DNA of 64,000 nt, from assembly GCF_000026545.1 (NCBI RefSeq), contig NC_011601.1; one strand, written 5' to 3'. Within the stretch, counting starts at the first letter, position 1. Each line of letters begins with the position of its first letter. Made by a program: the position numbers. This document shows positions 58,901-61,900 of this stretch, piece after piece. This DNA is from Escherichia coli O127:H6 str. E2348/69 (lineage in GTDB: Bacteria > Pseudomonadota > Gammaproteobacteria > Enterobacterales > Enterobacteriaceae).

Positions 58901-61900
58901 CGAAATAAATACATCATTAATACATATGTTGTGATGATGTATTTTTATAAATTATTTCCCACATGAATTTTAATAAATTTAATCTATTCCTTTATACGCA
59001 ATACATTTACTTTCCTCTTTTGATGATCTTAAATGTCTTATTTTTCGTAATGTGTATAACAAGGAATAGTGATGAAATTTAAAAAATGTCTTCTGCCTGT
59101 GGCAATGTTAGCGTCATTCACTCTGGCAGGATGCCAGTCAAATGCTGATGATCATGCCGCCGATGTTTATCAAACCGATCAACTGAATACCAAACAAGAA
59201 ACTAAAACCGTTAATATTATTTCCATTCTTCCCGCAAAAGTTGCCGTAGACAACGCCCAAAATAAACGGAACGCACAAGCCTTCGGCGCGCTTATTGGCG
59301 CTGTCGCTGGCGGTGTTATCGGCCACAACGTCGGGTCTGGCAGCAATTCCGGAACGACAGCAGGTGCAGTTGGCGGCGGAGCTGTTGGCGCAGCAGCGGG
59401 TTCTATGGTGAATGATAAAACCTTAGTGGAAGGTGTTTCTTTAACATATAAGGAAGGCACCAAAGTGTATACCTCCACCCAGGTGGGTAAAGAGTGCCAG
59501 TTTACGACAGGTTTAGCCGTTGTTATTACCACGACGTATAACGAAACGCGTATTCAGCCAAATACCAAATGTCCTGAAAAGAGCTAATAATCAGGAGGAG
59601 TCATGAAGAAAGTTTTTCTTTGCGCCATCTTAGCCTCCTTAAGCTATCCGGCTATCGCCTCATCATTGCAGGATCAACTCTCGGCTGTCGCAGAAGCGGA
59701 ACAGCAAGGTAAAAATGAAGAGCAAAGGCAGCATGACGAATGGGTCGCGGAGCGCAACAGGGAAATCCAGCAAGAGAAGCAACGTCGCGCAAACGCCCAG
59801 GCCGCGGCTAATAAAAGAGCGGCAACGGCAGCAGCGAATAAGAAAGCTCGTCAGGATAAACTGGACGCCGAAGCCACTGCGGACAAAAAACGCGATCAAA
59901 GTTATGAAGATGAGCTACGCAGCTTAGAGATTCAGAAACAAAAACTGGCGCTGGCGAAAGAAGAAGCCCGCGTTAAGCGCGAAAACGAATTTATCGATCA
60001 GGAACTGAAGCACAAAGCTGCGCAAACCGATGTGGTGCAATCTGAAGCTGACGCAAACAGGAATATGACTGAAGGCGGTCGCGATCTGATGAAAAGCGTG
60101 GGCAAAGCAGAAGAGAATAAATCAGATAGCTGGTTTAACTAAACGATGTTAGTAACTTCAAGTCTATAATTCTTTAGGATAAAAAACCCTCTGTAGTAAC
60201 AGAGGGTTTTGTTCATTCATAGTGCAGGGTCAAATCATTCCCACTCAATTATTTACTAAACTCATAACTAATTGACTGAAAACAACTTTTAAAACAATGA
60301 AATTTTTCATACCGTTTTATATACCGTCACCGGAAATCAGTACCATGAAAAATGCCATGTCACCGGGTCAGCGAATCGTACTGCTTTTCACAGACTCGTC
60401 CGGCTTCTGCGGCCCGGTCAGCGTACTCTGCCAGCTGTCGGTTTCGCTCGAGAGATTTGCTGAGCACGTCGGCAAGCAAAACTCCGGTATCTGCGGCTGA
60501 CGCCCCAGTGCCGACAGTGGAGTTATACTGCCTGAGCTGCTCACGGATGGCAACGAGCTGTTGCTGCAACCTGCCAGCGCGAGCGGCAGCATCAAGAGCA
60601 TCATTGCGCGCCTTGTCGATCCTCTGCTGCGCTTCACGTTCATTGGTAGCTTTCTCCTGTTCATCGTGATTACGGGCTTTATCATCAGCCTGTTTCTGGT
60701 CTTCCTGCGCCTGCGCATACCCGGCATAGTACTGGCGGTCACCGTGGACATTCCAGGCAGCCACGCCGCTGATGACAAGAGCAGCAAGCATCGACACTAT
60801 AAGCAACTGTTTCCAGTACGCTTTGATGAATGCCCAGATCATAACAGTGCCTTACGGGCAGCGGCGTAACGTGCTCGCCGGTCGTCGATACCGTTCTGGC
60901 CACCGTTGATAATCTGCGTGACGCGCACCAGGTCTCCCGTGTACTTCATGCAGCCTTTACTGGCGAAAAACCACGCCGCGCTGCGGGCCGCGTATTCATC
61001 CTGCGACAGCAGTTCAGGCTGAGCGACCAGATCAACCTTCAGACCATTACCGCAATCCCGGTAGTTGTTCAGACCAGTGATCTGGATAAGTCCACGACCG
61101 CGATAATTCCATCCATCACCCGGGCCGTTGTTACCCATGCGCTTGCTGTACACCAGATTGGCGATCGCGCGCTGGCGCTCCAGAGGAAGAGACTTCTCAT
61201 ATGTTTTCCTGCCGAGTGCGTTGGCCTGGTCTGGAGTGATGCGCCCGGCACGGATAAACCCAGACAGCCCGTTAACGCTGTAGTTGAAGTTTTCCTGTAA
61301 CCTGGTAAATCCTCCGGACTCATGCCCGACCTGCGCGATAAACATCGCCTGGTCATCTGGCTTGGTAATGCCAAACTCATTCATAGCAGCAGTGATATGT
61401 TGGTACCAGCGTGCGGCCAGTTGCTCAGTGATACCGGCTGCACGCCGGAACTGGTTAATGTCCATGTTGAGACCTCGATATTTTGAATATCTGCACGACG
61501 TTACCGCGCGTCTTCAGGACGGCGGCAAGCATGACAGCATTGATGATGACCTCTGATAAATCAGCGGCCATTGGTGTGTGATACCAGATTGCATATGCGG
61601 CGCGGACGGGGATGCTGGCTGACGCCACGATAAGGAAGTAGGCTATCCACCCACCCCACCGGCGGTGTTGCGATCCATTACGCCGGAAGGTTCCGACGCG
61701 GATTGCTATCGCAGAACAGATAACCGCATTGGCGACGAGTAAAATCAGCTCATGAGTTGTCATCGTCTTTTCTCCCCGGGATTAAATCGCGTGGATTGTC
61801 GGAGCGGTGATAGAGCCAGATACCAATACGTACTGCGACGATTGCCGACACGAACGCGCCAGCAGAGAAGACGATCCCTTTCTCAAAAGAGTCCTGCGTG

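Follow-up and report, generated by a model that had tools for sequence, protein, structure and literature searches.

The closest described relatives of the spanin pair analysed here are the orthologous Rz/Rz1 proteins of the Uetakevirus phages epsilon15 (NP_848234.1/YP_850992.1) and phiV10 (YP_512284.1/YP_512285.1). In both phages a holin-like gene is followed by a holin, a GH19 endolysin, Rz with embedded Rz1, and then the att site. The supplement of Kongari 2018 (PMC6139136) lists the two as embedded +1 spanins, with a 91-aa o-spanin that begins at an offset of 199 nt in an i-spanin gene of L=483 and finishes 8 nt from its end, and the study assigns them to the Bcep176 i- and o-spanin families. 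These families correspond to PHROG 312 and PHROG 11621, and to Pfam DUF2514. The lambda pair Rz/Rz1 (PF03245/PF06085) shares the general design: a helical i-spanin that is anchored by its N-terminus and contains a linker, and a short outer-membrane lipoprotein, rich in Pro, that is encoded in the +1 frame and whose start lies at about 0.4-0.5 L. There too the pair is the last in a holin-endolysin cassette, and the mechanism is presumed to be shared.

The locus described here lies in a window of 64,000 nucleotides (contig NC_011601.1, assembly GCF_000026545.1) from Escherichia coli O127:H6 E2348/69, the whole stretch of DNA that was analysed. An earlier note had claimed a lipoprotein ORF with the string LPLALAGC embedded in an alternate frame of the i-spanin gene, and this ORF is present at 60368-60604 on the minus strand. 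The features of the region are as follows.

60233..60249, minus strand: att core ATTGAGTGGGAATGATT, the attR junction that marks the prophage end and duplicates the 3' end of guaA
60360..60842, minus strand: i-spanin gene (Rz-like, DUF2514), 160 aa, with Pfam and PHROG matches
60368..60643, minus strand: o-spanin (Rz1-type) gene, coding for a prolipoprotein of 91 aa, in the +1 frame of the i-spanin gene
60368..60604, minus strand: the ORF of the earlier note, 78 aa, starting MMLLML..., a 5'-truncated form of the o-spanin gene
60464..60478, minus strand: CLPTC motif (Cys56, Cys60) of the mature o-spanin, a Cys-x3-Cys common to the whole family
60566..60577, minus strand: lipobox L-A-G-C, with Cys26 predicted to be lipidated and to mark the signal peptidase II cleavage
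60653..60658, minus strand: Shine-Dalgarno AGGAGA within the Rz coding sequence, preceding the o-spanin ATG by 9 nt
60839..61465, minus strand: GH19 endolysin, 208 aa, whose stop overlaps the Rz start (ATGA)
61455..61763, minus strand: holin, 102 aa, Phage_holin_3_7
61750..62154, minus strand: holin-like membrane protein, 134 aa, Phage_holin_8, the first gene of the cassette

Gene order and geometry are those of epsilon15 and phiV10. The o-spanin ORF occupies nt 199-474 of the 483-nt i-spanin gene (start at 0.41 L, end at 0.98 L), leaving 8 nt to the Rz stop, and the products are 160 and 91 aa long. It lies entirely within the i-spanin ORF in a different frame, which is the embedded architecture of Summer 2007 and Kongari 2018 and bears out the Rz1-in-Rz arrangement that the earlier note had proposed. 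Rz is 84-88% identical to its counterparts in epsilon15 and phiV10 and Rz1 86-89%, the latter figure also covering SPN9TCW; the Rz1 shares a 90%-identity cluster with that of epsilon15. At the DNA level the cassette is 92% identical to those of epsilon15, SPN1S and SPN9TCW and 83% identical to that of phiV10, and the records of these phages annotate Rz1 at the homologous 276-nt ORF. The differences from epsilon15 and phiV10 are limited to allelic substitutions, such as Ile52 in place of the Thr found in most homologues, and to provenance, since the cassette of the window belongs to an integrated EPEC prophage whereas theirs come from sequenced virion genomes.

The feature very likely encodes the o-spanin of a two-component spanin and forms the last unit of the lysis operon of an epsilon15-like (Uetakevirus) prophage. 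The spanin function is assigned on the basis of the architecture, the gene context and the analogy with lambda, T4 and others. With respect to context, the pair adjoins the holin and the endolysin, as expected in a lysis cassette, and the cassette forms the final operon of a prophage of about 40 kb integrated at the 3' end of guaA, with the att core 111 bp downstream of the Rz stop. An identical 17-bp att core has been reported for the Uetakevirus vB_EcoP_ZX5 (ZX5; PMC9782041). The holin-like protein, the holin, the GH19 endolysin, Rz and Rz1 are all full length and 84-100% identical to the lysis proteins of the isolated phages epsilon15, SPN9TCW and phiV10, with the endolysin 95% identical to those of epsilon15 and SPN9TCW. 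None of the five has a match in NCBIfam. An Rfam scan of 58000-64000 returned nothing, and a promoter and terminator scan of 60000-62500 found sites no more frequently than in shuffled sequences. Within the early/middle region of the prophage, three small ORFs are flagged by RefSeq as truncated and one tRNA as pseudogenic.

The i-spanin partner matches DUF2514 (PF10721) over profile positions 1-161 of 161 (E=7e-43, 146.9 bits against a cut-off of 26) as well as PHROG 312, 'Rz-like spanin'. It has the two domains expected of an i-spanin. Hydropathy places an N-terminal transmembrane helix at about residues 11-30 (60753-60812), with a Kyte-Doolittle peak of 2.1 at residues 14-32 (19-residue window), and the AlphaFold2 model (mean pLDDT 76) depicts a helical periplasmic domain, with helices at 10-109 and 114-159 joined by a flexible linker of low confidence. 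The second helix contains Cys151, which is invariant in the family alignment.

The earlier note had the frame and the end of the embedded gene right, but its start, from which the stop-free 78-aa translation MMLLMLPLALAGCSNSS...STIR* is read, is probably too far downstream. The o-spanin probably starts at the ATG at 60643, 39 nt further upstream, which adds MNVKRSRGSTRRA to the 78-aa form. This start is favoured because of its Shine-Dalgarno sequence, the conservation of the ATG, the annotation of relatives, the full match to PHROG 11621 and the poor signal of the shorter form. The position of the start codon is occupied by ATG in 63/63 distinct homologues, the commonest upstream variants among which retain CAGGAGAAAG, while only a weak AAGG precedes 60604, and the equivalent start is the one annotated in epsilon15, phiV10 and SPN9TCW. 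Against PHROG 11621, 'Rz-like spanin', the 91-aa form aligns with profile positions 1-88 of 88 (E=6e-40) and the 78-aa form with 11-88. Further, the 78-aa form has its Cys at position 13 with no Lys or Arg before it and thereby violates PROSITE PS00013 as to both position and charge, whereas the 91-aa precursor has a basic n-region and conforms to a PS00013-type rule. A secondary start at 60604 may also be used; the mature lipoprotein is identical with either start.

Around the predicted cleavage point the signal reads MNVKRSRGSTRRAMMLLMLPLALAG before CS. By the same rule-based test the precursor carries an outer-membrane lipoprotein signal, with no Asp at +2, and the Ser at this position predicts outer-membrane sorting. 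The Ser/Pro-rich body that the earlier note described corresponds to a mature part of 66 aa with 17 Ser, 7 Pro and 6 Thr. Cys56 and Cys60 are candidate disulfide cysteines, a role suggested by Kongari 2018 (PMC6139136).

The comparison with Rz1-family o-spanins that had been called for gave a divided answer: the protein matches the Bcep176/epsilon15 type and not the lambda type. The curated Rz1 of Burkholderia phage Bcep176 matches PHROG 11621 as well (E=9e-37), and the mature o-spanin is 47% identical to it. Common to the Bcep176 family and the window are the +1 embedding, the lipobox, the IPPLSPxARQP...CLPTCS core and the invariant i-spanin Cys, and no difference bears on family membership. 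Neither the 78-aa nor the 91-aa form had a meaningful match in Pfam scans; all database homologues carry the precomputed label PF28595.1. In particular, PF06085 was not matched even at E<=10, whereas lambda Rz1 as a positive control scored 72 bits. Similarly, the i-spanin matches DUF2514 alone and not PF03245 (Phage_lysis), which lambda Rz does match, and pairwise BLASTP against lambda Rz gave 26% identity (E=0.002). Pairwise similarity to lambda Rz1 does not extend past the signal peptide and the residues directly after it, and the mature domains differ: 66 aa, Ser-rich and with two periplasmic Cys (CxxxC) in the window, against 40 aa, Pro-dominated and with a single Cys in lambda. Membership of the lambda Rz1 family was therefore rejected for want of a PF06085 match and for similarity confined to the signal region. 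By profile and pairwise comparison, the o-spanin belongs to the Bcep176/epsilon15-type family.

An open frame with a lipobox in a single sequence is only suggestive of a gene, and the embedded gene is accepted as real because of comparative evidence. Such a frame could be a chance by-product of a hydrophilic, Ala/Gln/Glu/Arg-rich coiled-coil gene with rare +1 stops, from which no protein is made. In 15% of 20,000 synonymous recodings of Rz, no stop appears in the +1 frame over these 90 codons; the frame is also open well 5' of the start proposed here (its open length is 139 codons in the window and mostly 129-156 in homologues), and RefSeq/PGAP does not call the embedded gene. An ORF with a lipoprotein signal, however, arises in just 2.3% of the recodings. 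Among 63 distinct homologous genes the +1 frame is free of stops in 63/63, and start, Shine-Dalgarno and lipobox are kept, the last as the 5-residue string [AV]L[AV]GC in 63/63; no frame-disrupting variant was found among the roughly 76 distinct sequences checked. The diversity at Rz wobble sites is 0.23 outside the overlap and falls about fivefold exactly over Rz1 codons 1-62 (0.05 for codons 1-26, 0.04 for 27-62; Fisher p=1e-6), returning to 0.21 over codons 63-91. Within codons 27-62 the peak of variability moves to the wobble position of Rz1, which is also the more conserved of the two proteins there, with an amino-acid diversity of 0.045 against 0.085 for Rz. The pattern of substitution in these alignments thus shows purifying selection on both reading frames. 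Further, the +1 lipoprotein ORF persists in 7/7 phages with i-spanins 30-56% identical and in the close relatives epsilon15, phiV10 and 66FD. The lipobox is conserved in these 10 phages too, in keeping with what the earlier note expected of a genuine gene, and the protein motif is kept where the i-spanins are just 30-37% identical. The distant relatives include phages of Burkholderia, Edwardsiella and Pectobacterium. With the suppression of wobble-site variation, the conservation in 63 homologues and the motif in distant phages, the chance reading was rejected and is extremely improbable.

A genuine spanin gene could still be functionally idle, if the prophage were cryptic or never induced in E2348/69 and the intact cassette reflected recent acquisition and not use. 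The truncated ORFs and the pseudogenic tRNA mentioned above would fit such a history, as would the occurrence of this allele, at >=99% identity, in three E2348/69 assemblies only, and no induction data for the prophage were found in the literature searched. The prophage is nevertheless full size (~40.3 kb; phiV10 and epsilon15 have 39.1-39.7 kb), has both att junctions and carries intact integrase, replication, packaging (terminase, portal), capsid/head, tail and lysis genes, and the related guaA-integrating ZX5 was spontaneously induced to 1e7 PFU/mL (PMC9782041). An idle gene is accordingly a minor possibility. Even less can be said for a lipoprotein with another role, be it lysogenic conversion or exclusion, as for Bor, Cor and Llp, or release of proteins through a co-opted, type 10 secretion-like cassette. 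Phage lipoproteins of the conversion/exclusion type do exist, Yersinia entomophaga releases toxin by means of holin/endolysin/spanin cassettes, and the searchable literature yielded no experiments on this protein or on any Bcep176/epsilon15-type spanin, leaving that family with no experimental link to lysis. But the gene sits inside a late lysis operon on which its translation depends and which finishes at attR of a complete prophage; its geometry and its family assignment agree with those of curated spanins; and the mature o-spanin domain and the C-terminal half of the i-spanin co-vary across the family, as expected of a binding partner. Another role is thus scarcely credible.

For the preferred reading, an o-spanin acting in lysis, the lambda Rz/Rz1 paradigm suggests the following course of events. 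The o-spanin precursor would be exported, lipidated on Cys26 and then cleaved by signal peptidase II. The mature protein would bind the periplasmic C-terminal part of the coiled-coil i-spanin anchored in the inner membrane, giving a complex that spans the periplasm, and homotypic disulfides would be likely at Cys151 of the i-spanin and at Cys56 and Cys60 of the o-spanin. When the peptidoglycan mesh has been cleared by holin and endolysin, the collapse of the complexes would fuse the inner and outer membranes and so complete lysis.

The spanin subunits of lambda interact through their C-terminal parts. The last 29 o-spanin codons are poorly conserved here (amino-acid diversity 0.26), and the contact surface may therefore lie elsewhere. 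A doubtful but conceivable extension is that both the subunit contact and its covalent stabilisation differ from those of lambda, with the conserved core IPPLS...RQP...CLPTCS and its CxxxC, and not the extreme C-terminus, as the functional surface. This core and the C-terminal i-spanin helix that matches it would be passed on together as an exchangeable 'overlap module'; two types of it (CLPTC and CSPTC/CSPNC) would apparently have been exchanged among phages, with the breakpoint close to the lipobox. Among the 10 phages, CLPTC is present in 6/10, CLETC in ViII-E1, and CSPTC or CSPNC in Tyrion, 66FD and ZK22.

The embedded o-spanin gene is already annotated and catalogued and is nothing new: the exact protein is deposited as CAS10281.1/B7UGP6. 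Beyond annotation hygiene, the significance is small. The gene completes a canonical cassette with a holin for the inner membrane, an endolysin for the peptidoglycan and a spanin for the outer membrane. The earlier note had argued for a complete rather than a decaying module, and at the sequence level this holds because all five lysis ORFs are full length, in a full-size prophage. The complete cassette supports the view that the epsilon15-like prophage at the guaA site of EPEC E2348/69 is lysis-competent. The RefSeq annotation of E2348/69 omits the embedded gene and labels its partner 'DUF2514' alone, so that automated surveys of prophage integrity would score such cassettes as lacking an o-spanin. 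A homologous cassette is present in 376/5,426 complete E. coli genomes, and in those sampled the partner is likewise labelled 'DUF2514'.

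The lysis cassette consists of four overlapping, closely packed ORFs on the minus strand at 60360-62154, the last of which harbours the embedded o-spanin gene:

61750-62154, minus strand, holin-like membrane protein (Pfam Phage_holin_8)
61455-61763, minus strand, holin (Pfam Phage_holin_3_7)
60839-61465, minus strand, GH19 endolysin
60360-60842, minus strand, Rz, the i-spanin, 160 aa, a full-length match to Pfam DUF2514 (E=7e-43) that also hits PHROG 312 'Rz-like spanin' (E=2e-56)

At an ATGA, the stop codon of the endolysin overlaps the start codon of Rz. All five lysis proteins equal their epsilon15, SPN9TCW and phiV10 counterparts in length, except for the endolysin, which is one residue shorter, and are 84-100% identical to them, the exception again being the endolysin (80% versus phiV10). 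The module is intact at the sequence level, and the suggestion in the earlier note that it is complete rather than decaying is borne out to that extent, with five lysis proteins of the expected length.

The stretch 60368-60604 (minus strand), which lies in frame +1 relative to the DUF2514 gene, is stop-free, as had been claimed, and encodes 78 aa, MMLLMLPLALAGCSNSSLPSV...STIR. It contains the lipobox string LPLALAGC, and the Pro/Ser-rich description of the body fits the 66 aa following the cysteine (17 Ser, 7 Pro and 6 Thr). The frame, however, remains open beyond 60604, and an upstream ATG at 60643 adds MNVKRSRGSTRRA to give a 91-aa precursor. This ATG lies 9 nt downstream of an AGGAGA, the codon is ATG in 63 of 63 distinct homologous genes, and its equivalent is used in the epsilon15, phiV10 and SPN9TCW annotations. 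PHROG 11621 is covered completely by the 91-aa form (1-88 of 88) and only over 11-88 by the 78-aa form. Likewise, the PROSITE lipoprotein rule accepts the longer form, with its basic n-region and lipobox Cys26, and rejects the shorter, in which the cysteine falls at position 13 without a preceding Lys or Arg. The reading as a real embedded o-spanin stands, except for the Rz1 family label and, probably, the start codon. The ATG at 60604, preceded by a weak AAGG, may serve as a minor second start, and the same mature lipoprotein would be expected from either. A further upstream ATG (98-aa form) is located 5' of the Shine-Dalgarno sequence and lacks conservation. In most homologues the +1 frame is open for 129-156 codons, far 5' of the real start (60368-60787, minus strand, in the window). 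Many 157-aa 'proteins' have been deposited from this frame by gene callers, some labelled both DUF2514 and PF28595.

The gene is an ordinary one: it is the orthologue of a curated embedded o-spanin, and the original record of the genome already includes it. An identical 91-aa protein is deposited as CAS10281.1 (UniProt B7UGP6), a 'predicted lipoprotein precursor', with CAS10280.1 as the adjoining Rz, and falls in the 90%-identity cluster of epsilon15 Rz1 (YP_850992.1). The 'Bcep176' embedded i-/o-spanin families list epsilon15, phiV10, SPN1S, SPN9TCW, SPC32H/N and TL-2011b (Kongari 2018, PMC6139136). In the supplement to that study the epsilon15 and phiV10 pairs are embedded, +1, offset by 199 nt and 8 nt from the end, with L=483 (0.412-0.983 L) and an o-spanin of 91 aa, 66 aa when mature (PMC6139136); the geometry of the window pair is identical. 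Lambda Rz1 and Rz, by contrast, match PF06085 and PF03245, whereas the window proteins match neither, so that the likeness to Rz1 drawn in the earlier note does not extend to sequence family. BLASTP aligns the o-spanin with lambda Rz1 only over the signal peptide and the residues just after it. By analogy, the pair would function like lambda Rz/Rz1 while lying outside the lambda sequence families. RefSeq/PGAP omits the embedded gene in E2348/69 (locus L004, 3574-4056, from RefSeq NZ_LT827011.1) and names its partner 'DUF2514 domain-containing protein'. A homologous cassette occurs in 376 of 5,426 complete E. coli genomes, and in those sampled the o-spanin is likewise omitted and the partner carries only that name.

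Could the embedded frame be open by chance? Among 20,000 synonymous recodings of Rz, 15% left the +1 frame open across 90 codons and 2.3% yielded an ORF with a lipoprotein signal. Rz is hydrophilic and helical, and its codons seldom give +1 stops; a single sequence argues only weakly against chance. It is the comparative evidence that makes the embedded ORF more than chance. Across 80 related loci from IMG/VR and annotated phages, the +1 ORF is intact in every Rz-intact distinct sequence (about 76). In 63 distinct genes of 483 nt, aligned gap-free, there are no internal +1 stops, and both the ATG and [AV]L[AV]GC are present in 63 of 63. One homologue (IMGVR_UViG_3300045988_050698, 1501-1983) has TGA for TGG at Rz codon 3 with its Rz1 frame intact, which could mean that the copy is decaying, that the sequence contains an error or that a downstream start is used.

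The pattern of diversity in the 63 genes points in the same direction. The Rz wobble position, which is the second codon position of Rz1, has a nucleotide diversity of 0.23 in the 66 codons preceding the overlap. For Rz1 codons 1-26 and 27-62 the figure is only 0.05 and 0.04, respectively, and for codons 63-91 it is back at 0.21. Variable Rz wobble sites number 50 of 66 outside the overlap versus 20 of 62 over Rz1 codons 1-62 (Fisher p=1e-6). Over codons 27-62 the Rz1 wobble is the most variable position (0.073), and amino-acid diversity is lower in Rz1 (0.045) than in Rz (0.085). A simple low-diversity island from recent recombination would leave the frame of constraint unshifted, whereas selection on a second reading frame would produce such a shift. 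Purifying selection thus acts on both frames.

With Rz as the tblastn query, 273 of 50,697 phage records were hit, and 8 of these were examined. Seven encode i-spanins only 30-56% identical to that of the window: Enterobacter phage Tyrion, Salmonella phages Vi II-E1, ZK22 and 66FD, Burkholderia phages Bcep176 and Magia, and Edwardsiella phage eiAU. In the eighth, Pectobacterium phage Horatius, the o-spanin extends beyond the Rz stop. A +1 lipobox ORF with the core I-P-x-L-S-P-x-A-R-Q-P...C-[LS]-[PE]-[TN]-C is found in all eight, and for Bcep176 and Magia the mature o-spanin is closer to the window's (47-48% identity) than is the i-spanin (33-34%). The lipobox is therefore conserved in homologues, and frame-breaking variation sparing only Rz, which the earlier note had raised against its own reading, was not seen there. 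In Vi II-E1 versus ZK22, and in epsilon15 versus Tyrion and 66FD, the N-terminal halves of the i-spanins are common and the C-terminal halves differ; the differing halves pair with differing mature o-spanins, of the CLPTC/CLETC versus the CSPTC/CSPNC type. The breakpoint lies near the lipobox, and, judging from these alignments, phages seem to swap the overlap region as a single module that holds both interacting parts.

The AlphaFold2 model of the i-spanin (mean pLDDT 76, from a 20-sequence alignment) has an N-terminal hydrophobic helix, with a hydropathy peak over residues 14-32, that continues as a long helix reaching residue 109; residues 110-113 form a low-confidence break, and a second helix spans 114-159. 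The o-spanin is best conserved opposite the end of helix 1, the linker and the beginning of helix 2. Its last 29 codons (63-91, 60368-60457) are poorly conserved (amino-acid diversity 0.26), whereas the i-spanin is at its most conserved (0.046) in the segment opposite them, LERNRQLAEYADRAAEAGRVCEKQYD, which includes the invariant Cys151. These opposite profiles indicate that each gene dominates a different stretch of the common DNA. Weak constraint at this end of the o-spanin is a departure from lambda, where the C-terminal regions of the subunits interact.

Two overlapping coding frames, a lipoprotein signal, a helical partner with a TM anchor and a lysis-cassette context are thus all seen at this locus. 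Judging from lambda Rz/Rz1 and the Lol '+2' sorting rule, the o-spanin precursor would be exported, lipidated at Cys26 and cleaved by signal peptidase II, and Ser at +2 would direct it to the outer membrane. Together with the i-spanin it would form a periplasm-spanning bridge, probably with homotypic disulfides, for which i-spanin Cys151 and o-spanin Cys56 and Cys60 are candidates; at least one periplasmic Cys is present in 507 of 528 two-component spanins (Kongari 2018, PMC6139136). Fusion of the inner and outer membranes would follow once the endolysin has cleared the murein. A literature search found no experiment on any member of the Bcep176/epsilon15-type spanin family.

The window matches E. 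coli O127:H6 E2348/69 at 100% identity over 6 kb, and the cassette is the final operon of a ~40 kb prophage between yfgI and guaA, with genes for integrase, recombination, replication, terminase, portal, capsid and tail. K-12 homology stops at 60249, where a 17-bp core, ATTGAGTGGGAATGATT (60233-60249), duplicates the guaA 3' end; the identical core has been published for the related Uetakevirus vB_EcoP_ZX5 (PMC9782041). Likewise, attP and the integrase gene come immediately after Rz/Rz1 in epsilon15 and phiV10. The only decay signs seen in the prophage are in its early/middle region, outside the window (31693-33178 and 28271-28383 of locus L004), where RefSeq marks three small hypothetical ORFs as truncated and a tRNA-Gly as pseudogenic. 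A G+C-rich hairpin, AAAAAACCCTCTGTAGTAACAGAGGGTTTTGTT (60186-60212), flanked on both sides by A/T runs, separates the yfgI stop from the att core. It is host sequence, present in K-12 too, and looks like a bidirectional terminator for yfgI and lysis-operon read-through; a simple terminator scan did not list it. On the other side of the cassette, a 335-aa ORF (62351-63358, plus strand) with a signal-peptide-like N-terminus gave no Pfam or PHROG match; next to it comes an acyltransferase gene, which is cut by the end of the window. The two are flanked by tail genes and the lysis cassette, a spot in which epsilon15 and phiV10 carry O-antigen conversion genes. The pair may represent a serotype-conversion or moron gene.
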